Source of the DNA: a bacterium
Lineage (GTDB): Bacteria; Sysuimicrobiota; Sysuimicrobiia; Sysuimicrobiales; Humicultoraceae
DNA: 64,000 nucleotides
Assembly (NCBI GenBank): GCA_041497675.1
Contig: JBGQGY010000004.1
Coordinates: 1,938-65,937 of the forward strand
Reading direction: 5' to 3'
Part shown: positions 22,754-39,728 of the stretch, piece after piece
How the letters are laid out: every line of letters starts with the position of its first letter
Numbering within the stretch: the first letter of the stretch is position 1
Translations under genes and position numbers: made by a program
Notes under the pieces: generated by a model
The model's input: only the letters and a program-made list of their open reading frames with translations
Databases searched by the model: none
What the model was told of the DNA's origin: nothing

Positions 22754-23176
22754 CTAGCGCGCTGGCCGTTCGACCAGTTCGATCAGAACACCGTTCGTAT
22801 CCTTGGGATGGAGAAAGGCGATCCGCGTGTTGTGCGCGCCGCGCCGTGGCGTGGCATCGATCAACGCGATACCCGCACGCCGAGCCGCGTCGAGGGCCGC
22901 GACAATGTCGCGCACGTCAAACGCGATATGGTGGATCCCTTCACCCTTTCGTGCCAGGAATCGCGCGATGGGTCCATCGGATCCCAGCGGCTCGAGGAGC
23001 TCGAGACGCGTCCCCCCGGTGACAATAAACGCGGCGGACACGGCGTCGTCCGGCAGCGTCTCAGCCGGGCCGACCGTCAGACCCAACGTTTCGTAGAAGC
23101 CGCGCGCGACCGCGATGCTGCGGACGGCGACGCCAAGATGATCCACGCGGTCGGGCAGCCACGCGGGACGCGTCAC
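22754..23176 (-). CDS. mce: Methylmalonyl-CoA epimerase (VOC family)
   Basis: VDHLGVAVRSIAVARGFYETLGL...GGTRLELLEP...GEGIHHIAFDVRDI...NGVLIELVE is the classic methylmalonyl-CoA epimerase pattern. It lies next to meaB. Confidence 0.75.
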   Translation of the reverse strand: MTRPAWLPDRVDHLGVAVRSIAVARGFYETLGLTVGPAETLPDDAVSAAFIVTGGTRLELLEPLGSDGPIARFLARKGEGIHHIAFDVRDIVAALDAARRAGIALIDATPRRGAHNTRIAFLHPKDTNGVLIELVERPAR

Positions 23177-24120
23177 GGCCGGTACGCGAGCAATCGGTCG
23201 GCGGCCTCGTGCGGATCGAGTTCGCCCGCGGCGACGCGCTCAACCAGCGTATCCAGCGTCGCTGCGATGGCCCCGTCGAGATACAGCGCGCGCAGCCGCG
23301 TCTCGGCGATCCGCACGATCTCTCGGCGCCAGCGCGATTGCCGGCGCGCCGCCAGGCCGCCGGTCGCATCCAGATGCCGGCGGTGATCGGTCATCGCCGC
23401 CAGCACATCCTGCACACCCTTCCCTGTCGTCGCGATCGACGTCAAGACCGGAGGATGCCATGCCACCTGCGCGGCGAGTCCGAGGGCCATCTTGAGTTCC
23501 GTCACTGCGCGATCCACGTCGGGCCGATCGGCCTTGTTGACGACGAACACATCGCCGATCTCCATGATGCCCGCCTTCAGGGATTGGACGCCGTCACCCA
23601 GACCTGGGATCGTGACGACGACGACGGTGTCCGCGGCGGACACCACGTCGACCTCAGCCTGCCCCGTGCCCACCGTTTCGATAAACACCACCGCGGCGCC
23701 CCACGCGTCCAGCACCGAGACCGCCTGCGACGTGTGCGGCGCGAGACCGCCCAGGCTGCCCCGCGTCGCCATCGAGCGGACGAAGACCTCGGGATCGGTG
23801 CTGTGGTCCTGCATGCGGATCCGGTCGCCCAGGAGGGCCCCGCCGGAGAACGGGCTGGTGGGGTCGACCGCGACGACCCCGACGCGCCGCCCTTGCGCGC
23901 GCAGCCCACGGACCGCCGCGTCGACGAGGGTGCTCTTGCCGGAGCCCGGCGGTCCGGTGATTCCGACGATGTGCGCCCGACCCGTGTGAGGAAACAGGGC
24001 CCGGAGGGCGCCGGAGGCGCTGTCGCCGTCGTTTTCGATCACGGAGATCAGGCGCGCCGCAGCCTGGGACGAGCCGGCGACGACCTCGGCGACCAGGTCG
24101 CGGTTACGAGGTGTAGACAT
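23173..24120 (-). CDS. meaB: Methylmalonyl-CoA-mutase-associated GTPase MeaB/ArgK
   Basis: P-loop GITGPPGSGKST, then VDPTSPFSGGALLGDRIRM, then NKAD. The start MSTPRNRDLVAEVVAGS at 24120 was verified. The upstream 64 codons of the ORF are rejected. Confidence 0.85.
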   Translation of the reverse strand: MSTPRNRDLVAEVVAGSSQAAARLISVIENDGDSASGALRALFPHTGRAHIVGITGPPGSGKSTLVDAAVRGLRAQGRRVGVVAVDPTSPFSGGALLGDRIRMQDHSTDPEVFVRSMATRGSLGGLAPHTSQAVSVLDAWGAAVVFIETVGTGQAEVDVVSAADTVVVVTIPGLGDGVQSLKAGIMEIGDVFVVNKADRPDVDRAVTELKMALGLAAQVAWHPPVLTSIATTGKGVQDVLAAMTDHRRHLDATGGLAARRQSRWRREIVRIAETRLRALYLDGAIAATLDTLVERVAAGELDPHEAADRLLAYRP

Positions 24121-24166
24121 CTTTGAGTAGAATACCAGGCCGGCGCCGGGTGCTCCAGAGAGGTCT

Positions 24167-26248
24167 ATGGGTCCGCCCGCAGTGGGTACGTATTCTGACG
24201 TGAGCGCCACAACGCAGGGCTCGCTCCGCGTGCTCGATCGTCTCCTCAACCCGACAACCCGACCGGGTCTTGAGGCCACCGAGCACTTCATGTCGTGGTT
24301 GCGATTTGGCATCAGCGCGCTCGGGACCGGGGCGTATTTGCTCTCGCTTCCGTACTTCCAGCCCGTGGATGTCGGCGTGCAGATCCTGATTGGCGTCGCC
24401 TTTCTCTACTCCATTCCCCATATCTTCATCCAGCCGGGCCAGGCGACCCGGTGGACACGCGCACGCATCCTGTTCAACACGATCCTGGATTTCGTGCTGG
24501 CCACTTCGGCCGTGGCGATGACAGGTGGGATCAACAGCGGGCTGACCTGGCTGTTTCCCCTCACGATCGTCGGCAATGTCCTCCGGTACGGCGATGCCGC
24601 CGGCGCGCTCACGGCAGCCGGGAGCATGATTGTCTTCGCGGGCACCGCCCTGTGGCAGGGCGCACCGCCCAACACCGTCATTCCGATGCTGGTCTCGCGT
24701 CTGGGATTCTACTGGGTGCTCTATCTGATGGTGGCCCATCTCAGCCGCTACGCCACACGAATGGAGCGTGTAGCGCGAAAGGGCAGCCAGTTGATGGAAG
24801 CGATCGGCCGAATCGGCGTTCCCGTGAACCTGGCGGGCAATGTGTCGCTCGCGCTGACGGCGGTCTGCCAGGAGATCAGGGTGCTCTTCGACGTCGACCA
24901 CGTGTTCATCTGGCTCGTCGACGGTCAGGAACTCTTCGGGGCCGCAGCGACATCTGAGAGCAAGGACATCCTCGGCACGCGCCGCCGGCTGGACGATTCC
25001 GATGTGTTTGGAGCGCGCGTCATCCGTGGGCGCCGGCCGATGCTGATGAACGGCGTCCCCGCGGGTGGCGACGGTCTCGACGCCAGGATCGCCCGCGCCC
25101 ACGCCCTCAAGGCGGTCATCGGTATTCCATTGGTGCACGGCGATGCCGCGGTGGGTGTGATGATCCTGGCGGATTCGCGCAATCCGCACCGTTTTCGTGA
25201 GGAAGATCTGGCCCCGGCAATGCTCCTGGGCAACCTGGCCGCGACGGCCCTGTACCACGCGTCGATGCACGATCAACTCCGCCAGGCGTATGCCCGGACC
25301 CTGGAGACGCTCGGCGAGGCGATCGACGTGCATGACGCCTACACCGGCGGCCACTCGCACCGCATCGCGCGCTACGCGGAAGAAATCGCGCGGGCGCTCG
25401 ATTGCTCCGCCGAAATGCACGATCAGATCCGCACCGCGGCCATGCTCCACGATGTGGGGAAGATCGGGGTGCCGGACAGCGTGCTGCTGAAACCGGGCGG
25501 GCTCTCGCCCCACGAGATGGAGATCATGAAGAGCCACTCGCTGATCGGCGCGCGGCTCCTGCGGACCGCGGGTTTCACCGGTGAGGTCGTGACGTTCGTC
25601 CGCCATCTGCACGAGCGGTACGATGGGTCGGGGTATCCGGCCGCGCTGAAGGGTGACGACATCCCGCTCGGCTCGCGTATCCTGGCCGTGGCCGACACGT
25701 ATGAGGCGATGACGTCGGATCGCATCTACCGCTCCTCGCTAAAGCCCGAGGAGGCTCTGTTTGAGCTCCGGCGGTTCAGCGGCACCCAGTTCGACCCGAC
25801 GATCGTAGAAACATTTGCCAGGGTTGAGGCGTCGCTCCACGTGGGGCCGCCGGCCGGCGAGACGGCCTCAGCAGCCAGCGTCGACGACGTGTTCTCGGTC
25901 GTGATGGGACGCGTGGTTGACCGGTTCCGCGAGTTTGCCGGCAGCCAGGTGACCGATGGTCTGCTGGCCGGTGCGGCGGCCGAGTGCGCACGAAGACATT
26001 GGGCGCTGCGCACCGTCGATGGCCGGTACGACATCCAAACCCCTGAGCGTCAGTCCGCGCTCGAGGCCAGGCGTCACATCCTGACCTGGTTGTTCGCGCG
26101 GATCGAACAACTGGGCGGCCGTAGGATCGCGTTGCACCTCCTGGCCGAGGGCATCGAGAACCTGACCCCGGCGGCGCAGGAGACCTATCGTCTGTTGCTG
26201 GCTCCGGGGGACGCGGCGGGCAAACCCAAAGCGACGGCAAACGACTAA
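24167..26248 (+). CDS. Membrane-anchored GAF + HD-GYP phosphodiesterase with a C-terminal ~140-aa extension
   Basis: Five to six N-terminal TM helices, then a GAF-like region, then HD-GYP (HSHRIARYAEE...MLHDVGKIGVPD...HHERYDGSGYP...DTYEAMTSDR). The alternative start MSWLRF is at 24290. Confidence 0.8.
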   Translation: MGPPAVGTYSDVSATTQGSLRVLDRLLNPTTRPGLEATEHFMSWLRFGISALGTGAYLLSLPYFQPVDVGVQILIGVAFLYSIPHIFIQPGQATRWTRARILFNTILDFVLATSAVAMTGGINSGLTWLFPLTIVGNVLRYGDAAGALTAAGSMIVFAGTALWQGAPPNTVIPMLVSRLGFYWVLYLMVAHLSRYATRMERVARKGSQLMEAIGRIGVPVNLAGNVSLALTAVCQEIRVLFDVDHVFIWLVDGQELFGAAATSESKDILGTRRRLDDSDVFGARVIRGRRPMLMNGVPAGGDGLDARIARAHALKAVIGIPLVHGDAAVGVMILADSRNPHRFREEDLAPAMLLGNLAATALYHASMHDQLRQAYARTLETLGEAIDVHDAYTGGHSHRIARYAEEIARALDCSAEMHDQIRTAAMLHDVGKIGVPDSVLLKPGGLSPHEMEIMKSHSLIGARLLRTAGFTGEVVTFVRHLHERYDGSGYPAALKGDDIPLGSRILAVADTYEAMTSDRIYRSSLKPEEALFELRRFSGTQFDPTIVETFARVEASLHVGPPAGETASAASVDDVFSVVMGRVVDRFREFAGSQVTDGLLAGAAAECARRHWALRTVDGRYDIQTPERQSALEARRHILTWLFARIEQLGGRRIALHLLAEGIENLTPAAQETYRLLLAPGDAAGKPKATAND

Positions 26249-26264
26249 CGAAATCGACGAGGCA

Positions 26265-27850
<1,586 letters not shown>

Positions 27851-27854
<4 letters not shown>

Positions 27855-28396
27855 GTCGTGCCCTCCGGGACGATCCGGATCACCACGAGGATCTGGTCCC
27901 CCGCGACTTCCTGGCCGGGCCGCACGCGCACCTCTTCGACCCGGCCGGCGGTCGGCGCCGGAACCTCCATTTGCATCTTCATCGCCTCGACGACGGCCAC
28001 CGCGCTCCCCCGATCGACGTGCTGGCCGGCGCTCAGGGGCAGCGCGACCACCAGCCCGGGCATCGGAGCCCGCACCTCGACGCTGCCGCCTGGGGCGCCG
28101 GTCGCCGAACGGCGGGACGGGACGGGTAGCGCTCGCCGAACCGTGACCGCAACGCGCTCAGCCCCGACGATGACGTGGATCGCGCCATCAGCCTGACGCA
28201 GCCGGACCGGGATCGTCATGCTGTTCAACGTGAGACGCCACCATTCCGTCCCCTCGAGCGGCTCGAGCCGCACCGGGGTTGCGTCCATCCCAGGGATCAC
28301 CGAGCGCACCCACAGACCGGCGGGCCCACGTTCGACATCGATACGGCGCGGCCCCCCGCGCGCCGCGACCTCGAAGTGTACTGTCCCCCGCCTCAT
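27851..28396 (-). CDS. Biotin carboxyl carrier protein (biotinyl-domain subunit of acyl-CoA carboxylase)
   Basis: The C-terminal biotinyl domain contains the EAMKMQ motif ([22 protein letters not shown]). The start is taken at ATG 28396, overlapping the biotin carboxylase stop (ATGA). Confidence 0.75.
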
Positions 28397-29871
28397 CGCA
28401 CTCCCTCCTCGCGGGCCGCCGCCACCCAGGCAGGCGCCGTACCGTCGACCGGGAGCGTAAGCGTCTCTAGACTCCTGTATGCCCATGCGGCGGCGGCGAG
28501 CATCGCGATCTCGGTTGCACGCTCCGAGACCGGTCCCTGTTGCCACGCCTCAGCGAATCGTACGTCGTAGCGCCCGGCTGCAAACTCGGGCCGGTCGAGC
28601 GCCCACAGGTGGAACGGGATGGTGGTGTCCACGCCGGAAATGACGTACTCGGTCAGCGCCCTGCGCATCCGACCGATCGCCGCATCTCGCGTGGGCGCCC
28701 AGGCGATCACCTTTGACAGCAGCGGGTCGAAGTGCCGCGACACCACCTGCCCGACCCACAACCCGCTGTCGACCCTGATGCCGGGACCCGCGGGCTCTCG
28801 CGCGCCGTCGATGATACCGAGCCTGGGCAGGAACCCGCTGTGGGGATCCTCGGCGCTGATCCGGCACTCGATCGCGGCTCCGGTGCCTTGTACCTCATCT
28901 TGCGTGATCGGCAACGGCTCGCCCTCTGCGATGGCCAGTTGCGCCGCAACCAGGTCGATGCCGGTGATCATCTCGGTCACCGGATGCTCCACCTGGATGC
29001 GGGCGTTGATCTCCATGAAAAAGAAGTCCTCACCATCGATGAGGAACTCGATCGTGCCGGCGTTGCGGTACCCCAGCACGCGCGCCACCGCGACGGCGGC
29101 CTCACCCAGGGCCTGACGCAACCGGGGCGACAGCCCTGGCGCCGGCGCTTCTTCGATCAGCTTCTGGTGCCGGCGCTGCACCGAGCACGCGCGTTCCCCC
29201 AGATGCACCGTGCGGCCGTCACTGCCGGCGAGGATTTGCACCTCAACGTGTCTGGGGCCGTCGATCCACCGTTCGAGATAGACCCGGTCGTCGCCAAAAG
29301 CGCCCTGGGCCTCGCCCCGCGCCAGCGCCACGGCGCGTTCGAGTTCATCCGCCGATCGGACCAGGTGGATGCCCTTTCCCCCCCCGCCGGCGGCAGCCTT
29401 GATGAGCAGCGGAAATCCAATCGTTTCCGCCGCGCGCGGCGCGTCGTCATCCGCAATGGCCCCGGTCCCCGGGAGGATCGCTACACCCGCCGCGGCCACG
29501 GCCGCGCGCGACGCCGCTTTGTCGCCGCACCGCTCGAGTATCTCGGCCGGCGGTCCGACAAACGTGATCCCCGCCGCCGCGCAGGCGGCCGCAAACGCCG
29601 GGTTCTCGGCCAGGAATCCATAGCCGGGGTGGATGGCGTCGGCGTTGGCGCGTCGCGCCAGCCCGATCAGCGACTGGATGTTGAGATAACTCTCGGCAGG
29701 AACGTCAGCCGGCAGCGGCAGGGCGTCATCGGCCAACCGTACATGAGGAGCATTGGCGTCGATCGGAGCGTACACTGACAGCGGCGTAATGCCGAGGTCA
29801 CGGCACGCGCGGATGACGCGAACCGCGATCTCCCCACGATTCGCGATCAGCAGCCGGCGAATTCGGGGCAT
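28393..29871 (-). CDS. accC: Biotin carboxylase subunit of acetyl/propionyl-CoA carboxylase
   Basis: IRRLLIANRGEIAVRVIRACRDLGI...GYGFLAENPAFA...ATP-grasp (GGGGKGI) and the EMNARIQVEHPVTE motif. Confidence 0.9.
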   Translation of the reverse strand: MPRIRRLLIANRGEIAVRVIRACRDLGITPLSVYAPIDANAPHVRLADDALPLPADVPAESYLNIQSLIGLARRANADAIHPGYGFLAENPAFAAACAAAGITFVGPPAEILERCGDKAASRAAVAAAGVAILPGTGAIADDDAPRAAETIGFPLLIKAAAGGGGKGIHLVRSADELERAVALARGEAQGAFGDDRVYLERWIDGPRHVEVQILAGSDGRTVHLGERACSVQRRHQKLIEEAPAPGLSPRLRQALGEAAVAVARVLGYRNAGTIEFLIDGEDFFFMEINARIQVEHPVTEMITGIDLVAAQLAIAEGEPLPITQDEVQGTGAAIECRISAEDPHSGFLPRLGIIDGAREPAGPGIRVDSGLWVGQVVSRHFDPLLSKVIAWAPTRDAAIGRMRRALTEYVISGVDTTIPFHLWALDRPEFAAGRYDVRFAEAWQQGPVSERATEIAMLAAAAWAYRSLETLTLPVDGTAPAWVAAAREEGVR

Positions 29872-29880
29872 CGCCGGGCG

Positions 29881-30396
29881 TTACTCTTCCTCTTCTTCTT
29901 CTTCTTCCTCATCCGGCTCGCGGGGTCGATCGGGGCGGTAGACGAGGGCATAGCGGGCGATCTGGAATCCGACGGCCTCCCAGAAGCGCAGGCCGCGCAG
30001 ATTACCCGCCACGACGCCCGACTGAATCTCGACAGCGCCGTTGGCCTTCAACCACTCGAGCAGCGCCTCGGCCATGCGGCGGCCCATGCCTTCGCGACGG
30101 TATTCAGGGTAGATGAAGAACTCGCCGACCTGTGCGATGGTCTTAGCCTGATCGGCCCAGTGCTTCGTCATCACCACAACGGCGAACCCGACTTTGCGAG
30201 AGGCGTCGACGCCCCACCAGATGTGCCGGCGCTTCCCCTGTTCGGCGAAGAGCACTTCGAGGTAGTGGTTCAACCACGCGTCCGGCGCCGGTTCGCCGGT
30301 CGTCTCCTCACGATAGCGCCGCATCCAGTCGCGAAAGCGCGTGTCGCCCGCATCCACGGGTTCGAGCTTCAGGACCGCTCCGCTGGACGTCTTCAC
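29881..30396 (-). CDS. GNAT-family N-acetyltransferase with a C-terminal poly-glutamate tail
   Basis: Acetyl-CoA binding motif EFFIYPEYRREGMGRRMAEAL...ANGAVEIQSGV. The protein ends PDEEEEEEEEE, encoded by a (CTY)9 tract at 29884-29910. Confidence 0.7.
   Translation of the reverse strand: MKTSSGAVLKLEPVDAGDTRFRDWMRRYREETTGEPAPDAWLNHYLEVLFAEQGKRRHIWWGVDASRKVGFAVVVMTKHWADQAKTIAQVGEFFIYPEYRREGMGRRMAEALLEWLKANGAVEIQSGVVAGNLRGLRFWEAVGFQIARYALVYRPDRPREPDEEEEEEEEE
29884..29910. repeat. Trinucleotide microsatellite (CTC/CTT)9 on the plus strand = (GAG/GAA)9 in the GNAT reading frame
   Basis: ctcttcctcttcttcttcttcttcctc was read directly. It encodes the E9 C-terminal tail. Confidence 0.6.
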
Positions 30397-30441
30397 GACT
30401 GATCGGACAAGTTCAACCCCAGCCCAAGGGATTCCTCGCCC

Positions 30442-30954
30442 TTACACCCGCGTGTCTTCGAGGACCTCGCACGCGAGGACCAGGAAGTCGAGCGTCTCCA
30501 CCGGGGCGCCGTGCTGGCGAAGCATGGCCATCACCTGAGACCGATGATGCACCTCATGGTAAGAAAATTGCGTGAACACCTGCAGCGCAGATGCCCTGAC
30601 GCGAAACGTCCGGCGGCCCGGCGTCGGCACCGTGAACTCGATGCGCCGGTCCCAGTCGCGCTCGCCCTGGATGAGGTCGATCGTCCGCTGCTCCTGCGCG
30701 TGCCACGCCGACTCGAGCGCCGCGAAATCAGTCACGCGTTGCGCGGAAAACGGACGCTCACCGTCCGGACCCCCGCTGATCTGGCTCATCAGGAACCACT
30801 CGGCACCGGCCATGTGCAGGAGCGTGCGGCGAACCGACCGCAGCCCAAACGGAAACTCCTGCGCATACTGCTCCGCTGTCAGGCCGCGCACCGCATCGAG
30901 GATCCGCCGCCGGGCCGCAGTCAGATATTGAAAATGATCACTCGAGCTCAGCAT
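30442..30954 (-). CDS. DinB/YfiT-family (DinB_2) four-helix-bundle metalloprotein
   Basis: LHMAGAEWFL...YHEVHHRSQV shows the His-triad spacing typical of the DinB_2 family. Confidence 0.7.
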   Translation of the reverse strand: MLSSSDHFQYLTAARRRILDAVRGLTAEQYAQEFPFGLRSVRRTLLHMAGAEWFLMSQISGGPDGERPFSAQRVTDFAALESAWHAQEQRTIDLIQGERDWDRRIEFTVPTPGRRTFRVRASALQVFTQFSYHEVHHRSQVMAMLRQHGAPVETLDFLVLACEVLEDTRV

Positions 30955-30969
30955 GAGACCGACCTCATG

Positions 30970-32517
30970 TTACAGCGGGATGTTGCCGTGCTTGCGGCGC
31001 GGGTTGCTGGCCCGCTTACGATGGAGGACCTCGAGCGAGGCAATCAGCCGGCGGCGGGTCTCGCGCGGCGGAATCACGTCGTCAACGTATCCGCGCGAGG
31101 CGGCCACGTAGGGATTGGCAAACTGGGCGCGGTACTCGGCCACGAGTTCGCGGCGGCGGGCCTCCGGGTTGCCGGCCTCGGCGAGCTCTTTGCGAAAGAT
31201 GATATCGATGGCGCCCTCGGGCCCCATCACCGCGATTTCGGCCGTGGGCCACGCCAGGTTGAGGTCGCCGCGGATATGTTTGCTGGACATGACGTCGTAG
31301 GCGCCGCCGTAGGCCTTACGGGTGATGACGGTGAGCTTGGGCACCGTCGCCTCGCAGTACGCGTACAGGAGTTTGGCGCCGTGACGGATGATGCCGCCGT
31401 GTTCCTGCGCCACCCCGGGCAAGAATCCGGGCACGTCGACGAATGTGACGAGTGGCAGGTTGAACGCGTCGCAGAATCGTACGAACCGCGCGCCCTTCAC
31501 CGATGCGTCGATGTCCAGCACGCCGGCCAACGCCGCGGGTTGCTGTGCCAGCACGCCAACGGGCCGGCCATGCAGGCGGGCGAACCCCACGATCATATTG
31601 CGGGCAAACGCCTCGTGCACCTCGAGAAAGTCGCCGCCGTCAACCACGCGGCGGACCACCTCATGCATGTCGTATGGCTTTGTGGGGTCGTCCGGCACGA
31701 CGTCATCGAGTGCGGGATCGGCGCGGCCGGGGTCGTCCGTGGACGGGCCGCGCGGGGGTTCATCGAGGTTGTTCGATGGGAGGAATCCCAGCAAACGTCG
31801 GATCAGCAGCAGGCAGTCCTCATCGTCCGTGGCGACGAAGTGCGCGATACCGCTGCGGCTCGCGTGGACGTCGGCCCCGCCCAGGTCTTCAAACGACACG
31901 TCCTCGCGTGTCACCGTCTTGACGACCTGCGGCCCGGTCACAAACATGTACGCTGTGCCGCGCACCATGATCGTGAAGTCCGTGATCGCCGGCGAGTACA
32001 CGGCGCCCCCCGCGCACGGCCCCATGATCGCCGAAATCTGCGGGACCACGCCGCTGGCCAGCGTGTTGCGAAGGAAGATGTCGGCGTACCCGCCAAGGCT
32101 GACAACACCCTCCTGGATCCTCGCGCCACCAGAGTCATTCAACCCAATGACCGGCGTTCCGGTCCGCATGGCGAGATCCATGATCTTGCAGATCTTCTCG
32201 GCGTGTCCCTCGCCCAGCGATCCTCCCAGGACGGTAAAGTCCTGGGAGAAAACGTGCACGGGCCGGCCGTCGATGGTCCCGTGACCGGTGACGACGCCGT
32301 CCGCAGCGGCCTCCACTCGATCGAGGCCGAAGTCGCGGCTCCGCGGGGTGACGAATGGATCGATTTCGATGAACGATCCGGGGTCGAGCAGCACGTCGAG
32401 ACGCTCACGTGCCGTGAGCTTACCGCCCTCATGCTGGCGGCGCACGCGATCCGCGCCGCCCATGCCAAGAATCCGCTCACGGCGGCGACGCAGATCGTCC
32501 AGGCGGTCAGAGGACAC
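30970..32517 (-). CDS. pccB: Propionyl-CoA carboxylase beta chain / acyl-CoA carboxyltransferase
   Basis: [16 protein letters not shown]...[26 protein letters not shown]...[15 protein letters not shown]...[13 protein letters not shown], a full-length two-domain carboxyltransferase. Confidence 0.9.
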
Positions 32518-32535: not shown

Positions 32536-33759
32536 CTACGACGGCGGACCAGACTCCGGCGGCAGCGGGCTGTACGGGCGGATCGCGATAATCCCGTGTT
32601 TGAACACCAGCTCGTGAATCCCGTTGACCTCAACCATCAGACAGTAGGTCCCGTATTCTCTGACGATCGCCGACGGGATCTCGTAACCGTCGCGGCATCG
32701 AATATAGACCGGCGCGCCAACGCTCACCAGCCGCCGGTAGAATGCGTCCTCCATCGACATCTTCGGCGGGGCTTTGGCCACCGTCGAGCCGTCATGACGG
32801 TACTCCTCGCGCATCACCGTGACTGCACCTCCCTGGAGTTCTGGACGAATATCGGCCATGTCTCGAATCACGTCGGCATCGGTGACCTGGGCACGCACCT
32901 GCGGTAGCGTGGCCACCCGCGGCCCCGGCGTTTGTGGTGGTGGTCCGGACTCGCGGCCGGACGACGGGGGTTCGGGTTCTCCGGTCTCGTGGCCAACGAC
33001 CTCCGAGGCGAGACTCGCAGCCGCCGGCTCCTGTCCCGGGCGGATCAACTGCTCGTAGTGGCGGCGCAACCCTTCGAACTGGAGCTGACGATCGACCCGC
33101 GCGCGCCCCGCCGGCGCGATCAGCCTGGCCGGCTTCTGGACCGCATCGAGCACGGCTTGCACCACCGCCTCGGCTTCGCTCGCGGTCACCGGTTCGGCAC
33201 CCATCTGGATCTGGCTGGCCTTGTCAGTGGTGAGGGACACGGCGACCATCGCCACCGTGGCACCCGCGAACGGTATCAGGCTCAATCCTTCCAGTGAGGG
33301 CCGAGCGCCGGAGCGTTCGAGCAATGGGCGCAGGGCCTCGATCGCCGCGAGCGCCACGGTGCGCAGCCGCTGCGCCTGACCCGGGGTCGCCTGCGCGGAT
33401 CCCGTCGTGGTCTTCTGCGCGCCTTCGCGTTCGTAGCGAAGGTCAACCACGACCCGGGTCATGGCCTCGGTGATCGTCTCTTCCAGCCGCACCAGATGGC
33501 AGTGGGGAAACGCCTCCGAACCCATCACGGGCTCGAGGTGGGCGATCTGTACTCGCCAACCTTCGATCGGCAGGTTGAACTGGCTCATCAGCGCTGAGGT
33601 GATGGCCCTGCGGATTCCCCCGTCGTCACGGCCGGATTCGGTGGTGACGTAGATGCGCTCGATCTCGCCCGCCTCGTTCGCCACCACGCGGGCCGCCGTA
33701 ACAGTGTCAAGCCGTTCGAGGAACGCTTCAATCTCTTCTGCGAAGACTTCTCGGGGCAC
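32536..33759 (-). CDS. Protein with a C-terminal Hfq-like Sm domain fused to a ~320-aa N-terminal region of unknown repeats
   Basis: The last ~60 aa, EDAFYRRLVSVGAPVYIRCRDGYEIPSAIVREYGTYCLMVEVNGIHELVFKHGIIAIRP, align residue-for-residue with the Hfq Sm1/Sm2 motifs (PVxIYLxNG...FDxFxILL...YKHAIST). The N-terminal 320 aa have realistic composition with three loosely repeated ~80-aa units and a Pro-rich linker. The real gene could instead start at the internal MSMEDAF, giving a stand-alone 62-aa Hfq. Confidence 0.6.
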   Translation of the reverse strand: MPREVFAEEIEAFLERLDTVTAARVVANEAGEIERIYVTTESGRDDGGIRRAITSALMSQFNLPIEGWRVQIAHLEPVMGSEAFPHCHLVRLEETITEAMTRVVVDLRYEREGAQKTTTGSAQATPGQAQRLRTVALAAIEALRPLLERSGARPSLEGLSLIPFAGATVAMVAVSLTTDKASQIQMGAEPVTASEAEAVVQAVLDAVQKPARLIAPAGRARVDRQLQFEGLRRHYEQLIRPGQEPAAASLASEVVGHETGEPEPPSSGRESGPPPQTPGPRVATLPQVRAQVTDADVIRDMADIRPELQGGAVTVMREEYRHDGSTVAKAPPKMSMEDAFYRRLVSVGAPVYIRCRDGYEIPSAIVREYGTYCLMVEVNGIHELVFKHGIIAIRPYSPLPPESGPPS

Positions 33760-33811
33760 GGGATGCTCCGTTTCGTTGGCTGTAAATCGAGATCATGCCA
33801 CCTGTTCTGCG

Positions 33812-35065
33812 TCAGCCCAACCCATACCTGCGGCCAAATGCCATCAGGGCGTTCTCGAAACACTCTTGTGGTGCGCGCACAAGACCCGCCCCGATGATCG
33901 GGTGCCCGGGTTCCTTGTGGGCGATGGCCGTGTCAATGATCGGCAGGATGCCGGTCCGCACGACCTTGCGGATATCGATACCCACCGGGGAGCCCTCGAA
34001 GGCAAACACGGGCATGCGATAGGTGGGACTCGCGGCGATGGTGATCTCGCGCATGTCCCGACTGTACTGGAGCGCGGCCTCGGGGGTGCCGCCAACAAGG
34101 CTCAGGATCCCCGGGGCGCCGCCGAGCACGAAGCCGCCCCACCCCACGGTCTCCGTGATCGCGGAATCCCCCATGTCGCGCCCGGCATCTTCGACCGTGT
34201 ATCCCGGGAGGTAGAGACCCTCGATCCGTGGCGAGGGTGCCGTACACCACTCGCTGCCGAGCCCGCTCACCCGGATGCCGAACTCCGTCCCATTGCGCGC
34301 CATGGCCGTGACAATGGTGCTGTACTCGATCCCGGATGCGGCGTCGGCGGCAGCCTTGCCGGACGCCATGGCCAGTGCAAGAAAAAACACCTCGTGATTA
34401 CCCAGCAGCCGCAGCGTCTGCACCAGGTGGTCCTGAGGAACCCCGGCCTCGATCATCGGCACGGCCATAGCGTTCGCAAACAGGCTGGACGCCGCTACCG
34501 AACGGTTGTGCAGTTCGTCGCCCATCTGCAGCGCCTTCGCGATGAGCGACTTCAATGCGAGCCCTCCCATCCGACGGAGGCCTGACCGGAGCGACGGCGC
34601 CCAGATGTCCCGCCACGCCCGCAGGCCGCCCAGCGCCTGGTCGCTATAGTCGCCGAATTGTTGCCGGCTCTCGACCTGCCGGCAAAACGCGCGATTGCCA
34701 TGAGCCCGGTTCTCGACAATGAAGACGGGCAGCGAACGTGTGATGGTGCCCGCCATGGGACCCACGGCCTGGTGATGGTGGTTGGGGTCAAGGCGGATGG
34801 CTCCGCGCTCGAAAAGCGCGATCGCCGCGTCGGCGGTATCGGCCCAGCCCTCAAACAACACCATCCCGATCACCGCGCCGCGCTGCGCGCCGCACATGTG
34901 CTCCCAGTCGACCGGCGGACCCGCGTGCAGGACCATACGATCCTCGAGTCCGGGGATGACCTCGCCGGCCGGCGCGATGTCGACCAGGACCGGGTCGGCC
35001 GCGTTGATGCGGCGCACCGTCTCGGCGTTGGCGGCTTCAATCCGTTGTGTGAGATCCTGCGTCAT
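33812..35065 (-). CDS. DUF1116-family protein (YlbE/AllG-like), assignment tentative
   Basis: C-terminal 417 codons of ORF 33812..36280(-) from the ATG at 35065 (verified). The rest of that ORF overlaps the downstream substrate-binding-protein gene in another frame and is rejected. It is co-oriented with, and 11 nt downstream of, the BMP transporter genes. Confidence 0.6.
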   Translation of the reverse strand: MTQDLTQRIEAANAETVRRINAADPVLVDIAPAGEVIPGLEDRMVLHAGPPVDWEHMCGAQRGAVIGMVLFEGWADTADAAIALFERGAIRLDPNHHHQAVGPMAGTITRSLPVFIVENRAHGNRAFCRQVESRQQFGDYSDQALGGLRAWRDIWAPSLRSGLRRMGGLALKSLIAKALQMGDELHNRSVAASSLFANAMAVPMIEAGVPQDHLVQTLRLLGNHEVFFLALAMASGKAAADAASGIEYSTIVTAMARNGTEFGIRVSGLGSEWCTAPSPRIEGLYLPGYTVEDAGRDMGDSAITETVGWGGFVLGGAPGILSLVGGTPEAALQYSRDMREITIAASPTYRMPVFAFEGSPVGIDIRKVVRTGILPIIDTAIAHKEPGHPIIGAGLVRAPQECFENALMAFGRRYGLG

Positions 35066-35076
35066 GATCAGGCGTC

Positions 35077-36195
35077 CTACCTCGGCTGTCCGACGACGCC
35101 CTCGGCGAGCCAGTCCATGCGGCCGATATCCTGGTTCGTCAGCACCTGCCCCGCCGCGACGCGCTCGGTGCCCCGGTTGTCCCTGATCGGCCCCTGGAAG
35201 ACGTTGAGCTGCCCGCCGATGAACGCCTGCTTGGACGCGTTGACCTTGCGAATCGCCGCCTGCGGGACGGCGGGGCCAAACGGCGCGATGGTGAGGAAGT
35301 CGCTGGCGAGGCTCCCGAAGAGCGCCTCGGACTTCCAGGTGCCGTCTATGACCTGTTTCGCGAAGCGCGTGTAGAGGTTGCCCCAGGTAAAGGCGATCCC
35401 ACTGATCCACCCTTTGGGCGCGAACTTCTGCAATCCGCTGAAGTGGTACCCGACGGACAACACGCCGCGGCGCTCGGCAATCTGCACGACGGTGATCGGT
35501 GAGTCGACGATCATGGCCAGCACGTCCACCCCCTGGTCGAGCAGCGCGTTCGCGGCCGTGGCCTCCTTGCCCGGATCGAGGAAGGTACCGGTGAAGACCA
35601 CGCGGGTCTCGAAGCGCGGGTTGATCGTGCGCGCGCCGAGATGAAACGCGTTGACGTTGGCGAGGAAGAAACTGATGGGCAGCGCGACGACGAAGCCGGC
35701 CTTCCCGGCCTTGCTCGCACTGCCGGCGGCGATACCCATCACGTAGAACGCCTCGGGGGTACTCGCCCAGTACGTGCCCAGGTTCGGCGCCAGTTTGAAG
35801 CCGCCGGGATGCACGAACTTCACGTCGGGGTACTTTCTCGCGACGTTGAGCGCAGGGTCGAGATACCCGAAGGACGCAGGGATAATGAGCTTCGCGCCCT
35901 GGCGGATCATATTCTCCATGACCCGTTCGGCGTCGGCGCCTTCGGGGACGTTCTCGACCTCGATCACCTTGACGTCGGGCAGGTTCTTCTGCAGGACTTT
36001 GATACCCTCGGCGTGAGCCTGGTTGTACCCGCCGTCGTTGACGGACCCCACGTGCAGGATGCCGACGATCAGCGCCGGCTGTGGCGCGCCCCACGCGGGC
36101 AACTGCCCCGGACCGCCTGCCCCGGCGGCGAAGAGCAGCGCGGCGCACGCGAGGATGACACCGAGCACTCGCACCGTGCGCACATGTGTCCCCAT
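35077..36195 (-). CDS. BMP-family (basic membrane protein / nucleoside-binding) ABC transporter substrate-binding protein
   Basis: Signal peptide, then ALIVGILHVGSVNDGGYNQAHAEGI...VKFVHPGG...VDSPITVV, the Bmp/PnrA/Med family pattern. Confidence 0.85.
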   Translation of the reverse strand: MGTHVRTVRVLGVILACAALLFAAGAGGPGQLPAWGAPQPALIVGILHVGSVNDGGYNQAHAEGIKVLQKNLPDVKVIEVENVPEGADAERVMENMIRQGAKLIIPASFGYLDPALNVARKYPDVKFVHPGGFKLAPNLGTYWASTPEAFYVMGIAAGSASKAGKAGFVVALPISFFLANVNAFHLGARTINPRFETRVVFTGTFLDPGKEATAANALLDQGVDVLAMIVDSPITVVQIAERRGVLSVGYHFSGLQKFAPKGWISGIAFTWGNLYTRFAKQVIDGTWKSEALFGSLASDFLTIAPFGPAVPQAAIRKVNASKQAFIGGQLNVFQGPIRDNRGTERVAAGQVLTNQDIGRMDWLAEGVVGQPR

Positions 36196-36218
36196 TTTCC
36201 CTCAGCCTCCTTGTGTTC

Positions 36219-37136
36219 TCATTCCGTGCCTTCAAACACGCGCCCCAAGCTCGCGGGAGCGGCACGCCTGCGGGCACCACCCCACAACAGCAGGACTCCG
36301 AGACTCAACAGGTATGGCAGCATGTCGAGCAGGAACGACGAGACCGGCACGCCTCGGGCCTGCATCTGCAGTTGAAAGGCGACCGCGCCCCCAAACAGGA
36401 GCGCGCCCCACAGTGCTGTCAGCGGGTGCCATGCGGAAAAGATGACCAGTGCCACCGCGATGAAGCCCCGGCCGCCCGTCATCCACTCAGCCCAGGTCTT
36501 GGCCACCCCCAGCGACAGATACGCGCCGGCGACCCCGCCCAGCAGGCCTGCGACGATGAGGGCCTGAAACTGGACCGTCGTCGGATTCACTCCGGCCGCG
36601 AACGCCGCAATAGGGCTCTCGCCGACGGCGCGCAGCCGCAGGCCCCAGCGGGTCGAGAAGAGCATCCACCAGACGACGATCGCCGTCGGGACGGCCAGGT
36701 AGACGATGATATCGTGCGCGAAGAGCATCGGTCCGATGACGGGGAGATTCGAAAGCACGGGGACTCTGAGTTGGTTGATGCCCTCGATCCGGCTGCCGAT
36801 ATAGGGCGCCCCCACGAGCGCCGACAGGCCGACGCCGCAGAACATCAGCGCGAGCCCGGCGGCCAGCTGATTTGCGCGGCGCGCTATCACCAGATACCCG
36901 AATATCATGTTGAACACCGCGCCCGCGAGCGCCCCCGCCGCGACACCCGCGCCGGCGCTGCCGGTCTGAACGGTGGCGGCGAATCCCGCCGCCGCCCCCA
37001 TCAGCATGACGCCTTCGAGGCCTAGGTTGACGATCCCCGCCCGCTCGCCGACGACCTCGCCGAGCGTCGCGTAGAAGACCGGGGTACCCGATAACACGGC
37101 CCCGAGCAGGACGCTCTCGATGAGCGACGCAGCCAC
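36219..37136 (-). CDS. ABC transporter permease (BMP/nucleoside-type, second permease)
   Basis: C-terminal 305 codons of ORF 36219..37784(-). The GTG start at 37136 overlaps the TAG of the upstream permease (TAGTG), verified. It has multiple TM helices and the branched-chain/ribose-type permease fold. Confidence 0.8.
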   Translation of the reverse strand: MAASLIESVLLGAVLSGTPVFYATLGEVVGERAGIVNLGLEGVMLMGAAAGFAATVQTGSAGAGVAAGALAGAVFNMIFGYLVIARRANQLAAGLALMFCGVGLSALVGAPYIGSRIEGINQLRVPVLSNLPVIGPMLFAHDIIVYLAVPTAIVVWWMLFSTRWGLRLRAVGESPIAAFAAGVNPTTVQFQALIVAGLLGGVAGAYLSLGVAKTWAEWMTGGRGFIAVALVIFSAWHPLTALWGALLFGGAVAFQLQMQARGVPVSSFLLDMLPYLLSLGVLLLWGGARRRAAPASLGRVFEGTE

Positions 37137-38152
37137 TACGGCCCCCTCTGGTCGCGGCGGGCGAGGACGACGAACAGGATCAAGGCCATCAAGATGTTGA
37201 CCACCGAACCCGGCAGCCGCTGGGTCATCTGCAAGATGTCCCCGCCGACCGTGATGATCGCCAGGAGGAACGCCGCGGCGACGATACCCGCCGGATGCCC
37301 CCCGGCCATCCACGAGACGAGAAAACCCGCAAAGCCGTAGCCGGGCGAGAGGCTCGGCCGCAGGCGTCCCTGGATCGCCGACACCTCGGTCATGCCGGCG
37401 ATACCGGCCAGCCCGCCGCCGATCAGCATCGCGACCACGAGATAGCGGTCGACGGCGATCCCGCAGCGCCGCGCGGCCACCGCGTTCCCGCCGATGGCGC
37501 GCATCTCCAGCCCCCACCGCGTGCGCGAGAGCGCGAACGCGTAGGCAACGAGCGCGGCGACGGCCAATGCGGCGCCGAGGTGTACGCGGGTCCCGAAGAA
37601 TGCAGGCAATTGGGCCGACGCCGCGAGCTGTGCCGTCTGCGGGTAATTCGCGCTCTCTGGATCCTTCATTGATCCAAAGACGAAGAAGCTCACCAGCAGG
37701 ATGGCCACGTAGTTGAGCAGGAGGGTCGAGATCGTCTCGCTGGCCCAGCCCTTCGCGCGCATCACGCCCGTGAGACCGGCCCACGCCCCGCCACCGACAA
37801 ATCCCAGGGCGGTGATCAGCGGCAGCAGGATCCAGGCGGCCAGCCCGGAGAAGGTCAGCGCACCCCAGGTCGCCGCGAGCGCGCCGAGGTAGAGTTGTCC
37901 TTCGCCACCCACATTGATCAGGCCGATCCTCGAGGGGATCGCCACGGCGAGCGCCGTCAGGATCAGCGGGATCATCTTCACCAGCACTTCCGAGAACCCG
38001 TAGCCGTTCGCCAGTGTGGCGGTGAAGATGTCGAGATAGGCCCGTAGGGGATTCTTCCCGGCCGCCAGCAGCACGATCGCGAAGGCCGTGAATGCGAAGC
38101 CGAAGACGAGCGCGAACTGGGTCAGTCCCGCAGGGCTAGCGCGGCGCCCCAT
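37136..38152 (-). CDS. ABC transporter permease (BMP/nucleoside-type, first permease)
   Basis: ORF 37136..38212(-) from MGRRASPAGLTQFALVFGFAF. It has eight to ten predicted TM helices. Confidence 0.8.
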   Translation of the reverse strand: MGRRASPAGLTQFALVFGFAFTAFAIVLLAAGKNPLRAYLDIFTATLANGYGFSEVLVKMIPLILTALAVAIPSRIGLINVGGEGQLYLGALAATWGALTFSGLAAWILLPLITALGFVGGGAWAGLTGVMRAKGWASETISTLLLNYVAILLVSFFVFGSMKDPESANYPQTAQLAASAQLPAFFGTRVHLGAALAVAALVAYAFALSRTRWGLEMRAIGGNAVAARRCGIAVDRYLVVAMLIGGGLAGIAGMTEVSAIQGRLRPSLSPGYGFAGFLVSWMAGGHPAGIVAAAFLLAIITVGGDILQMTQRLPGSVVNILMALILFVVLARRDQRGP

Positions 38153-39728
38153 CGCGGCGTCCTCCACGATCATGCGACCCGACGGCGGCCACGCGCTCGG
38201 ATTCGCCGCCACCCGTCATCAGGCGGCCCACCTGATCGGCCGTCGTCTCCTGGGGCTTGAACTCGGCGACAATGCGCCCGTGGTAAAGGACGATCAGGCG
38301 GTTGCTGAGCGCGAACAGCTCGCCCAGGTCTTCAGAGATGAGCAGGACGCCGGCGCCGGCGTCTCGCGCGGTCACGAGTAGCTCGCGCGCGGCAATCGCA
38401 CTCTGCACATCGAGTCCCCGGGTCGGATAGGACGCGACGATGAGACGGGGATGACGGGCCATCTCCCGCACCAGGACGACGCGCTGGAGGTTGCCACCCG
38501 AGAGCGATCCCGCCCGTGCCGACAGCGCCGGCAGTGGCATCGACAGGCGCTCGACCGTGCGTTCCGCGTCGCGCCGCACGGCATCCCAGTTCATCGCCAG
38601 GCCGCCCCGTCGCGCGTACCCATGACTGTTGCTCAACGCGAGGTTTTCCTGGACGGTCAGGGACGGGACGACGGCCATCGACAGCGGATCTTCGGGGATG
38701 TACGCCACGCCGCCCGCCCGGATCGCAGATACGGACCACCGCGTGGCGTCCTCGCCGAACAGGAGTTTCGTGCCGTGCACGGCCCGCTCGAGTCCCAGAA
38801 TAAGATCACCCAGCTCCCGCTGCCCGTTGCCCGAGACTCCGGCGACGCCGACGATCTCGCCTGGGGCGATTCGCAGATCGATGCCCCGCAGGCTCGTGGC
38901 CCGGCCCTCGCCGCGGGTATCGACGCCGCGGAGCTCGAGCAGCGGTTCTGTAGAAGCCGCTCGGGCCCCGTCGGACCGGATGGTCACGTCGGCCGGCCCC
39001 GCCCCGAACATCAGCGATACCAGGCCGGACTCCGTCGCGTTGGCGCGCGCGAGCGTCCCGGCCACCCTGCCGTGGCGCATGACGGTAATGCGGTCGGCGC
39101 AGGCCAGCACCTCGTGCAGTTTGTGGGTGATGAAGACGATGGCATATCCGTGGCTGCAGAGATTGGCGAACACGTGAAAGAGGCCCTCGATCTCGTGCGG
39201 CGCCAGCACGCGCGTGGGCTCGTCGAGGATCAGCACGCGCGCATCGGCCAGAAGCAGCTTCAGCAGCTCAACCTTCTGCTGCTCGCCGATCGAGAGTTGC
39301 CCGACCGGCGCATGCGGATCGATCGACAACCCGTACGCGCTCGAGCGGTCTTCGATGCGCCGGACGATCGCCGCCCGGTCGAGCACGCGCGGCAGCGCCG
39401 GTTGGAAGAGTGCAATATTCTCGGCCACGGTCAGGGCCGGGATGAGCGTGAACGATTGGAACACCATGCCGATCCCGAGCGCGCGGGCGTCGTGCGGTGA
39501 GCGGATCTGCACGGGGGTGCCCCGCAGGCGGACCTCTCCGGCGTCCGCGCGGTAGAACCCGTAGAGGACTTTCATCAGGGTGCTCTTCCCCGCCCCATTT
39601 TCGCCGAGCAGGGCGTGGACCTCGCCGGCGTAGAGGTCGATGTCGACGTGATCGTTGGCCAGGACATCGGGGAAGGACTTGGTCACACCACGGGCGGAGA
39701 GAAGCGGCTCAGGCCTTGCGTGCGCCAT
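38136..39728 (-). CDS. ABC transporter ATP-binding protein with duplicated ATPase domains (sugar/nucleoside importer type)
   Basis: Two ATPase cassettes. Cassette 1: GENGAGKSTL, LSIGEQQKVEL, LILDEPT. Cassette 2: SGNGQREL, LSGGNLQRV, ASYPTRGLD. The ATG at 39728 has GGAAGGAG upstream, verified. Confidence 0.85.
   Translation of the reverse strand: MAHARPEPLLSARGVTKSFPDVLANDHVDIDLYAGEVHALLGENGAGKSTLMKVLYGFYRADAGEVRLRGTPVQIRSPHDARALGIGMVFQSFTLIPALTVAENIALFQPALPRVLDRAAIVRRIEDRSSAYGLSIDPHAPVGQLSIGEQQKVELLKLLLADARVLILDEPTRVLAPHEIEGLFHVFANLCSHGYAIVFITHKLHEVLACADRITVMRHGRVAGTLARANATESGLVSLMFGAGPADVTIRSDGARAASTEPLLELRGVDTRGEGRATSLRGIDLRIAPGEIVGVAGVSGNGQRELGDLILGLERAVHGTKLLFGEDATRWSVSAIRAGGVAYIPEDPLSMAVVPSLTVQENLALSNSHGYARRGGLAMNWDAVRRDAERTVERLSMPLPALSARAGSLSGGNLQRVVLVREMARHPRLIVASYPTRGLDVQSAIAARELLVTARDAGAGVLLISEDLGELFALSNRLIVLYHGRIVAEFKPQETTADQVGRLMTGGGESERVAAVGSHDRGGRRDGAPR

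Follow-up and report, generated by a model that had tools for sequence, protein, structure and literature searches.

A phylum-specific Hfq of Candidatus Sysuimicrobiota combines a folded N-terminal module with a predicted internal translation start

Results

A single reading frame encodes an N-terminal module, a linker and an Hfq/Sm domain

We analyzed a stretch of 64,000 nucleotides (hereafter the window; NCBI GenBank assembly GCA_041497675.1, contig JBGQGY010000004.1, positions 1,938 to 65,937 of the forward strand) from a bacterium of the family Humicultoraceae in the phylum Sysuimicrobiota, which contains a gene for an Hfq/Sm domain fused to the C-terminus of a much larger protein. The gene occupies positions 32536..33759 of the minus strand, on which all features described below lie unless stated otherwise, and consists of a single unbroken reading frame of 407 codons with a GTG start. 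Its full-length product, here called HfqX-L, comprises a sensor-like N-terminal module (N-module), a linker and the Hfq domain. We take GTG 33759 as the start codon, since homologues share the N-terminus MPREVFAEEIE at the corresponding place. A Shine-Dalgarno (SD) sequence GGAG (33766..33769) stands 6 nt 5' of this GTG; within the close clade ACGGAGC is kept around the primary SD, and the primary starts there are weak GTG or TTG codons. An original prediction, made from the DNA alone, had described a protein-like composition in one frame, and this holds for the whole open reading frame (ORF): the GC content at third codon positions (GC3) is coding-like in all four of its segments (0.69-0.85, with 0.82-0.86 in neighboring genes and an overall GC content of 67% in the window). 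The peptide in which that prediction recognized Hfq corresponds to residues 337-395. Public annotations of the fusion proteins read "RNA chaperone Hfq," "sRNA-binding regulator protein Hfq" or "hypothetical protein."

A protein cluster search covering 5.8 billion proteins returned 127 clusters, nearly all of 355-473 amino acids with 96-100% query coverage and 36-100% identity. The family alignment shows a conserved N-terminal part of 235 residues, a variable linker, an invariant IRPExxGGA motif and the Hfq domain. When each GTDB species was represented by one genome, 53 loci were obtained, with a single locus in each of these genomes. Named carriers are Candidatus Fervidifonticultor, Geohabitans, Thermofontivivens and Calidihabitans as well as "Armatimonadetes bacterium CSP1-3"; the four genera among these carriers fall into three families of the phylum Candidatus Sysuimicrobiota (CSP1-3). 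By sequence comparison, the fusion is conserved throughout this uncultivated phylum, and the gene is a phylum-specific, modular Hfq. The proposal of a large Hfq-domain protein is thereby borne out, with conservation over the full length in more than 120 clusters and at least 53 species genomes, a folded N-terminus (see below) and stand-alone homologues of the N-terminal part. Literature searches found no description of an N-module-Hfq architecture, and the two genomic papers on the phylum mention neither Hfq nor the propionyl-CoA pathway.

The C-terminal domain is a divergent Hfq/Sm domain

The Hfq/Sm domain (residues 335-398; 32566..32757) consists of helix alpha1 and five strands. In the AlphaFold model the helix and the five strands have a predicted local distance difference test (pLDDT) score of 92-96, and they follow the Sm fold, in which five strongly bent strands come after an N-terminal helix. 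The Sm2 block, predicted to be of the YKHAI type, is present as F386-K387-H388-G-I. K387, H388 and Y372 are invariant in an alignment of 41 diverse homologues; according to HMMER alignments and the family alignment, Y372 is equivalent to F42, and K387 and H388 are equivalent to K56 and H57 of the proximal uridine pocket. The domain also contains an invariant motif, IRCRDGYE, which is specific to this family.

Profile searches support the assignment at the level of the family. The Pfam Hfq model (PF17209) matched all of the 41 homologues (best E 4.4e-9), and a profile built from them retrieved 36 sequences from the PDB, all of which are Hfq or Hfq-like and of which Thermotoga Hfq ranked first (E 2.5e-7). 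A phmmer search against PDB sequences with the window protein gave Hfq and Hfq-like chains exclusively, the top match being Caulobacter Hfq (E 0.004), and the only matches in an NCBIfam search were three Hfq models. The Hfq assignment of the C-terminus is thus secure for the family, whereas the signal of the window protein taken alone points to Hfq and stays below the curated cut-offs. PF17209 scored the full-length window protein at 19.3 bits (E 8.7e-4) and its last 74 residues at 23.8 bits (E 3.4e-5), both below the gathering score of 27; TIGR02383 reached 16.6 bits with a cut-off of 61.7, and all three NCBIfam models stayed far under their cut-offs. From these sequence comparisons we conclude that the C-terminal ~65 residues are a true but divergent Hfq/Sm domain.

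Contrary evidence comes from the sub-threshold scores of the window protein in both Pfam and NCBIfam and from exchanges at several positions that matter in E. coli Hfq. In alignments with Caulobacter and Thermotoga Hfq and within the family, the Q8 position is taken by an invariant glutamate (E337). The rim arginines R16, R17 and R19 are replaced by V345, S346 and G348, the distal Y25 position is an invariant arginine (R354), and the Hfq core has a net charge of about 0 and is nearly neutral instead of basic. Because key residues of the E. coli protein are replaced and the core is nearly neutral, the specificity of RNA binding, and even RNA binding itself, could differ from that of E. coli Hfq. 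Variation at Q8, the rim arginines and Y25 is likewise known from accepted Gram-positive Hfq proteins.

The N-terminal part is predicted to fold into a domain of its own and a LeuA-type domain

According to structure prediction, the N-terminal 215 residues form a folded module in which an alpha-beta-beta-alpha-beta domain is followed by a LeuA-type domain. In the full-length model the pLDDT is 86-98 across most of residues 11-210, and AlphaFold2 prediction of residues 1-215 with a broader alignment gave a mean pLDDT of 91. The first domain (D1, residues 7-74; 33538..33741) has the predicted order alpha-beta-beta-alpha-beta and is net acidic, with a charge of about -5. It is followed by two beta-beta-beta-alpha repeats (D2 and D3, together residues 87-208; 33136..33501) with the fold of the allosteric domain of LeuA and citramalate synthase (CMS), which the structure prediction bounds at residues 87-149 for D2 and 153-208 for D3. 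Comparison by hhalign related residues 84-150 to residues 151-212 (probability 94%, E 1.2e-7, 62 columns) and found D1, the first ~78 residues, unrelated to either of them. The three repeats of ~80 amino acids of the original prediction are thus reduced to two, D2 and D3, behind a distinct first domain.

Structure comparison places D2 and D3 closest to LeuA. The top three matches of a Foldseek search with D2 and D3 were LeuA entries (E 1.8e-5 to 1.3e-4, probability 1.0), and LeuA ranked first in both structure searches. In their packing against each other, D2 and D3 match the LeuA/CMS domain (106 of 115 residues superposed) and the two-unit arrangement of the LeuA_dimer domain (PF08502). A second tier of Foldseek matches consisted of proteins with tandem double-stranded RNA-binding domains (dsRBD), namely TRBP, DCL3 and Loqs (E 5e-4 to 3e-3). 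Features of a dsRBD are lacking: helix alpha1 is absent, the module is net acidic, and no dsRBD family is among the recurrent Pfam matches. Two arginines, R131 and R133, are conserved at the start of the D2 helix. Where the LeuA-type domain is known, it forms dimers with leucine or isoleucine bound at the interface (PDB 3fig, 3f6g).

At the sequence level the picture is more mixed. No Pfam or NCBIfam family reached threshold on the N-terminus or on its stand-alone relatives. PF08502 weakly matched 24 of 121 stand-alone relatives (best E 2.9e-6) and was by far the most recurrent family, which adds sequence support to the structural match with LeuA. Telling against the LeuA assignment, a PF08502 search left the window protein itself unmatched. 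A search of PDB sequences with an N-module profile likewise gave nothing significant and no LeuA chain, the best match being ribosomal protein L22 (E 0.04). The window protein contains no isopropylmalate or citramalate synthase catalytic domain; the order is D1, LeuA-like domain, linker and Hfq.

A basic helix and an acidic linker connect the two parts

A basic amphipathic helix with the pattern DRR.Q.E.LR.HY.RLIR (residues 224-239; 33043..33090; charge about +3.5) follows the N-module and falls past the end of the stand-alone N-module proteins of ~210-220 amino acids. Next comes the Pro-rich linker that had been noted in the sequence, which is indeed present as an acidic Pro/Ala/Glu-rich segment (residues 240-303; 32851..33042) predicted to be disordered (pLDDT <50). 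In homologues this linker is 20-118 amino acids long, with a mean charge of -9.5, many indels and no sequence conservation. It ends at the IRPExxGGA motif (residues 304-312; 32824..32850), which is invariant in the family alignment. The acidity of the linker and D1 argues against RNA binding by the N-terminal part. The linker recalls, by analogy, the acidic C-terminal tails of E. coli and Caulobacter Hfq, which compete with RNA and autoregulate its binding (PMC5606850, PMC6561178).

The N-module exists as a stand-alone protein linked to HD-GYP genes

An exhaustive HMMER (phmmer) search with residues 1-235 identified 327 representative proteins at E<=1e-3. Besides the fusions, most of these are stand-alone proteins of ~205-250 amino acids that cover residues 1-210, with E-values down to 3e-14. 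They occur in Desulfitobacterium, Desulfosporosinus, Carboxydothermus, Acididesulfobacillus and Fimbriimonadales and are all annotated as hypothetical. The homology spans all three N-module domains (~210 amino acids), and a tblastn search with a Desulfitobacterium member found the window at E 8e-13.

The gene 3' of the stand-alone N-module gene is strongly conserved. In all five genome loci the next gene on the same strand encodes a MASE9-HD-GYP phosphodiesterase, often followed by a DUF5317 gene, and an HD-GYP gene was found 3' of the stand-alone gene in 44 of the 52 metagenome loci with enough downstream sequence. MASE9-HD-GYP proteins combine a membrane sensor with a c-di-GMP phosphodiesterase (bioRxiv 10.1101/2021.11.05.467447). 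At the fusion loci, unlike the stand-alone loci, no HD-GYP gene lies directly downstream. The fusion thus joined a pre-existing module, which is probably ligand-binding or signaling, to Hfq, because the module exists as a stand-alone protein next to HD-GYP genes, with no Hfq gene nearby in any of 80 metagenome loci. An unfused N-module gene adjoining hfq, sought as an evolutionary intermediate, was not found in 80 metagenome loci, which were collected with a narrow N-module alignment.

The stand-alone loci show further regularities. The spacer of ~250-300 nt between the stand-alone gene and the HD-GYP gene (L008 7655-7917; L010-L012, L066-L145) contains two to three direct repeats AGCGAAGCGG(A/T)AAA and, in addition, a strong SD together with a small ORF for a conserved hydrophobic peptide of ~24-45 amino acids, such as MSKLYKVLAILVTLVLAGGANYKI. 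A long-range inverted repeat, for example TTGGCCGACT...AGTCGGCCA, flanks this spacer cassette, and Rfam gave no match in the spacer. The spacer might serve as a regulatory leader or as an operator to which the N-module protein binds. In Carboxydothermus pertinax (L010 5643-6965), two cold-shock protein genes and a ribosome hibernation factor gene precede the stand-alone gene; such an RNA and translation neighborhood is absent from the other stand-alone loci examined. In the window, a gene for a membrane-anchored protein of 693 amino acids with transmembrane, GAF and HD-GYP (HD_5) parts lies on the plus strand (24167-26248), between the methylmalonyl-CoA mutase and MeaB genes. A GAF-HD-GYP gene ~6 kb from the fusion gene and on the opposite strand was seen only in the window and in its close relative, locus L013, among the Sysuimicrobiota loci fetched, and its presence may be a coincidence.

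A conserved internal ribosome-binding site predicts a short Hfq

The codons of the IRPExxGGA motif contain an internal SD, GGAGGTG (32826..32832), formed by codons G310 and G311 and the first base of A312. It is followed in frame by GTG (V315) and ATG (M316) at 32812..32817, which lie 10 and 13 nt after GGAGG and are the predicted internal starts. Initiation there would give a short product, Hfq-S, of 92-93 amino acids in the same frame and with the same stop codon (32536..32817, with starts at 32817 or 32814).

Codon usage at the motif differs markedly from that of the remainder of the gene. The first invariant glycine is encoded by GGA in 36 of 48 loci and the second by GGT, again in 36 of 48, with a background for the same glycine codons elsewhere in the same genes of 16 and 11%, respectively; the binomial p-values of ~1e-19 (GGA) and ~1e-25 (GGT) treat related loci as independent and are therefore inflated. 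The control invariant glycines G358 and G370 are mostly encoded by GGC or GGG, and elsewhere in the fusion genes Gly-Gly is mostly encoded by GGCGGC or GGCGGG. At the alanine after the motif's Gly-Gly, the wobble position is free, with the four codons used 13, 13, 11, and 10 times. An in-frame ATG, GTG or TTG is found 4-13 nt downstream in all 36 SD-positive loci and in 5 of the 12 SD-negative loci. Of 214 further GGAGG sites in these genes, 38 have an in-frame start behind them (Fisher p 4e-23, with the same caveat on related loci). Where valine comes right after the motif, SD-positive loci use GTG for 27 of 32 codons; in SD-negative loci one of six is GTG and five of six are GTC. The codons of I304, R305 and E307 upstream of Gly-Gly are unusually often ATT, CGT and GAA, that is, with A/T-rich wobble positions. 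GC content is reduced at the site in SD-positive loci, and the 45 nt around it fold more weakly than the rest of the gene (mean z +0.69, positive in 34 of 36), whereas in SD-negative loci they fold more stably (mean z -0.57).

SD-led starts are used in this lineage, with a 4-mer SD at 26 of 44 called genes, and the primary start of the fusion gene, a GTG or TTG with the 4-nt SD GGAG, is weaker than the internal one. The SD-positive loci include Humicultoraceae and Thermofontiviventaceae and thus at least two families. The synonymous conservation across 35-48% protein identity and the covariation with start codons point to selection at the mRNA level, and comparative sequence analysis strongly indicates that the internal SD and the in-frame GTG/ATG are under synonymous-site selection in most lineages, the window included. 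In-frame internal initiation would probably produce the predicted Hfq of 92-93 amino acids besides the fusion; as the frame holds no stop codon in between, translation of the N-module necessarily yields the long form. The original prediction had offered, as an alternative, a small separate Hfq starting at MSMEDAF behind another gene or 1 kb of untranslated DNA. A start at these residues (M334 and M336) is rejected, as homologues have V, I, L or Q there and no SD precedes them; the idea of a small Hfq survives in modified form, with GGAGGTG and the start at V315/M316 lying 20 codons upstream.

Two observations temper the proposal of a short product. The SD is absent from a clade that includes Kaftiobacteriaceae and Candidatus Calidihabitans (L007, L037, L038, L042, L044-L048, L055), in which the motif reads GGC-GGN and is followed by GTC, not GTG, linkers are shorter and local GC is raised. 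Such lineages seem to manage with only the fused form. In addition, IRPE is invariant as amino acids, for which the SD alone cannot account, and therefore Gly-Gly may have a role in the protein as well.

The fusion gene is linked to the propionyl-CoA and methylmalonyl-CoA genes

Downstream of the fusion gene lies pccB (30970..32517), encoding the carboxyltransferase subunit of propionyl-CoA carboxylase (PCC). Its start is ambiguous: GTG 32517, which lies 18 nt from the fusion gene, gives a protein of 515 amino acids whose N-terminus is typical of PccB, and ATG 32463, the choice of gene callers, gives 497 amino acids and a gap of 72 nt; an SD is evident before neither codon. The rest of the cluster (23173..30954) encodes DinB, GNAT, AccC (biotin carboxylase), BCCP, methylmalonyl-CoA mutase (MCM) and MeaB. 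The placement beside carbon-metabolism genes, which had been remarked on for this one sequence, proved to be conserved across the phylum, with the near-universal order ligA - Germane - fusion gene - pccB - GNAT - accC - BCCP - MCM - MeaB. In 46 of 50 loci pccB is the next gene after the fusion gene, and in the other four GNAT-MCM-MeaB follow directly, so that lineages lacking pccB and accC keep the fusion gene next to GNAT-MCM-MeaB. The fusion gene evolves faster than its neighbors, with 35-76% identity compared to 75-90% for PccB.

In the window and L013, five genes are inserted between the Germane gene and the fusion gene, which stayed with pccB. In the window this insert (33812-39761, minus strand) consists of genes for a Bmp-family ABC transporter (binding protein, two permeases and ATPase) and AllG/DUF1116; elsewhere in the phylum this position has no such insert. 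The AllG gene runs in the same direction as the fusion gene and ends 52 nt from it, and a minus-strand scan for terminators and sigma-70-like promoters found none in the gap between these two genes or in that between the fusion gene and pccB. Of the claim that the fusion gene is the first of a PCC/MCM operon, the position directly upstream of pccB stands; the first place in the operon is plausible and is called into question by the co-directional AllG gene 52 nt away, with no terminator or promoter in between. Because the conserved order also holds the unrelated upstream genes ligA and Germane, the linkage to the PCC/MCM genes may be inherited synteny instead of function.

Upstream of the start, an invariant GCAGAA motif (33805..33810 in the window) lies 44-51 nt away in the close clade and 27-36 nt away in four more distant loci. 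It is present with either Germane or AllG as the upstream gene, is preceded by GGCAGGAGAC in many loci, and is a putative promoter or operator. RNAalifold gave no consensus structure for the 65 nt upstream of the start, and hairpins seen there by eye were discarded, being unsupported by it. Searches with Rfam at gathering thresholds in the window and eight related loci found no RNA family near the fusion gene. Elsewhere in the window (44909-45008, minus strand) a SAM (S-box) riboswitch of 78.5 bits precedes GHMP-kinase, pyridoxal phosphate (PLP)-enzyme and ThiS genes, an arrangement that recurs in the distant relative L007.

Discussion

Hfq is usually described as a small, single-domain protein in which only the disordered C-terminal tail is variable, and its gene usually stands in the context miaA-hfq-hflX. 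Combinations of the Sm fold with other folded domains and disordered regions are found in ataxin-2, Edc3, LSm14/Scd6 and archaeal SmAP3; in such multidomain Sm/LSm proteins the Sm domain is usually N-terminal and the partner domains are others, without an evolutionary link to the fusion beyond the Sm fold. The fusion described here is a new architectural variant of the well-known Hfq family. It has in common with canonical Hfq (PF17209; Thermotoga 4y91, Caulobacter 6gwk, E. coli 1hk9) the Sm fold, an Sm2 motif of the type (F/Y)KH(A/G)I, the aromatic residue at F42 and, for the predicted 92-93-aa product, the size. It differs in that the domain is C-terminal behind ~330 extra residues, 215 of them folded, in the exchange of Q8 for Glu and of Y25 for Arg, the absence of rim arginines, the invariant IRCRDGYE, the nearly neutral core and the sub-threshold score of the single protein, and in the position of the gene outside the miaA-hfq-hflX context. 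Hfq proteins in which the C-terminal tail is long or acidic (E. coli, Caulobacter and Acinetobacter; PMC5606850, PMC6561178, PMC11617691) likewise carry a disordered acidic or low-complexity extension on the Sm core, and by analogy the extension here may compete with RNA for the ring. In contrast to these tails, it is N-terminal and tethers a folded sensor-like module instead of ending freely.

The N-module has its own points of comparison. It shares the packing of two beta-beta-beta-alpha units with the allosteric (dimerization) domain of LeuA/CimA (PF08502; PDB 3fig, 3f6g), and differs from these enzymes in having no synthase catalytic barrel, an extra alpha-beta-beta-alpha-beta domain in front and no PF08502 match. 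With the stand-alone family of ~215 amino acids (Desulfitobacterium Desdi_0479, Carboxydothermus, Fimbriimonadales) it is homologous across the three N-terminal domains, whereas the stand-alone genes have a small hydrophobic ORF and then a MASE9-HD-GYP gene behind them and no Hfq nearby. Internal initiation that yields two proteoforms has been described for ClpB, IF2, CheA and ArcB (bioRxiv 10.1101/520783, PMC11005335), with an in-frame SD and start inside the ORF as here, and the C-terminal proteoform could, as in those systems, co-assemble with the long form. Internal initiation is unreported for hfq, and the basis here is comparative sequence. The GGA-GGT codon conservation at the invariant Gly-Gly, which predicts the second product, is new in this analysis.

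Overall, we lean, by a narrow balance of probability, towards a modular, phylum-specific Hfq with two predicted products and a sensor-type N-module as the best explanation of the data. The Hfq domains would form the usual hexameric ring and bind RNA via the proximal face, which is proposed because its key residues are invariant, and long and short subunits would co-assemble into mixed rings. The LeuA-like modules would pair, so that six long subunits would place three dimers around one ring. A change in the N-module driven by a ligand, which might be a metabolite or a second messenger, would pass via the basic helix and the acidic tether and open or block RNA-binding surfaces. Post-transcriptional control, possibly of the adjacent propionate and branched-chain catabolic genes, would thus be coupled to metabolic state. 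In its known homes the LeuA-type fold binds branched-chain amino acids, the breakdown of which leads to propionyl-CoA, the substrate of the adjacent pathway, and these amino acids are therefore candidate ligands; a cyclic dinucleotide is another candidate because the stand-alone relatives are linked to HD-GYP c-di-GMP phosphodiesterases. The full version of this scheme, which would be the first case of its kind, is an allosterically gated Hfq switched by a branched-chain amino acid, an acyl-CoA related compound or a cyclic dinucleotide, in which the mixing of long and short subunits sets the sensitivity and which directly controls the adjacent propionyl-CoA/methylmalonyl-CoA pathway. We regard that version as distinctly improbable.

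Several other readings of the protein have to be weighed. That the ORF is an annotation artefact, with an N-terminal kilobase that is untranslated or separate and a small Hfq made from MSMEDAF only, is a view that a single genome cannot dismiss, as no stop codon separates the two parts; it is effectively refuted already by protein-level conservation of the N-terminal 215 residues in more than 120 clusters, their pLDDT of 91 and hundreds of stand-alone homologues, by codon-position GC that is coding-like throughout, by the unconserved M334 and M336 without an SD, and by the fact that, without a stop, ribosomes on the N-module must continue into Hfq. The opposite possibility, that only the full-length fusion is made and GGAGGTG with GTG/ATG is an elongation pause, a binding site at the RNA or DNA level or a decaying relic of the hfq ribosome-binding site that preceded the gene fusion, seems unlikely to us and still deserves consideration. 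A pause would help the two halves to fold separately, IRPExxGGA is also invariant as a peptide, SD-like sequences are common in these GC- and Glu/Gly-rich genes (~5 per gene), and one clade lacks the SD. This has to be set against the synonymous-site conservation across 35-48% protein identity, the co-occurrence of a start codon in 36 of 36 SD-positive loci, the preference for GTG over GTC only where the SD exists, and the lowering of GC and local folding in SD-positive loci only; a relic would have decayed at such distances. It is similarly doubtful that the Hfq domain is mainly an oligomerization or protein-docking ring, a role that has been proposed for cyanobacterial Hfq, and that the working part is the N-terminal sensor module assembled by the ring into a hexamer. 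The replaced Q8, rim arginines and Y25, the non-basic core, the independent existence of the N-module in association with HD-GYP signaling rather than RNA genes, and the faster evolution of the fusion gene (35-76% compared to 75-90% for PccB) fit such a role, but Y372, K387 and H388 of the uridine pocket are invariant, and a predicted short isoform without the N-module makes sense only if the ring has a function of its own.

If the beta-beta-beta-alpha units were dsRBD-like, the protein would be a multi-site RNA binder with tandem dsRBDs and Hfq and would not be regulated by a ligand. The Foldseek matches to TRBP, DCL3 and Loqs (E 5e-4 to 3e-3), the conserved R131 and R133 that open the D2 helix, and the position of the stand-alone relatives upstream of a leader with repeated AGCGAAGCGG motifs could be read in this way. 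We consider it very unlikely: LeuA is the top match in both structure searches, the packing is LeuA/CMS-like with 106 of 115 residues superposed, the recurrent Pfam match is PF08502 and not a dsRBD family, helix alpha1 is missing and the module is net acidic. Much more evenly balanced, and falling just short of an even chance in our judgment, is the possibility that the PCC/MCM position is merely an inherited gene order in one phylum without regulatory meaning and that the protein is a general Hfq. All loci come from a single phylum, the conserved block includes the functionally unrelated ligA and Germane-domain genes, and Rfam finds no known RNA element nearby. Against this, the linkage outlasted the upstream five-gene insertion and the loss of pccB and accC in some lineages, the gap to pccB is short (18-72 nt) and contains no terminator, and the LeuA-type fold is known to bind amino acids whose breakdown feeds propionyl-CoA.

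An entire phylum thus carries Hfq behind a folded sensor-like N-terminal module, an unusual architecture that neither of the public names, "RNA chaperone Hfq" or "hypothetical protein," captures. The N-module also defines a new and widespread family of ~215 amino acids in Bacillota, Armatimonadota and others, with a LeuA-like fold and a tight linkage to MASE9-HD-GYP genes. The predicted internal start offers a simple, testable case in which one gene would provide two subunits of the same ring, and if the module binds a ligand, the fusion would give a small molecule direct input into a global RNA chaperone.

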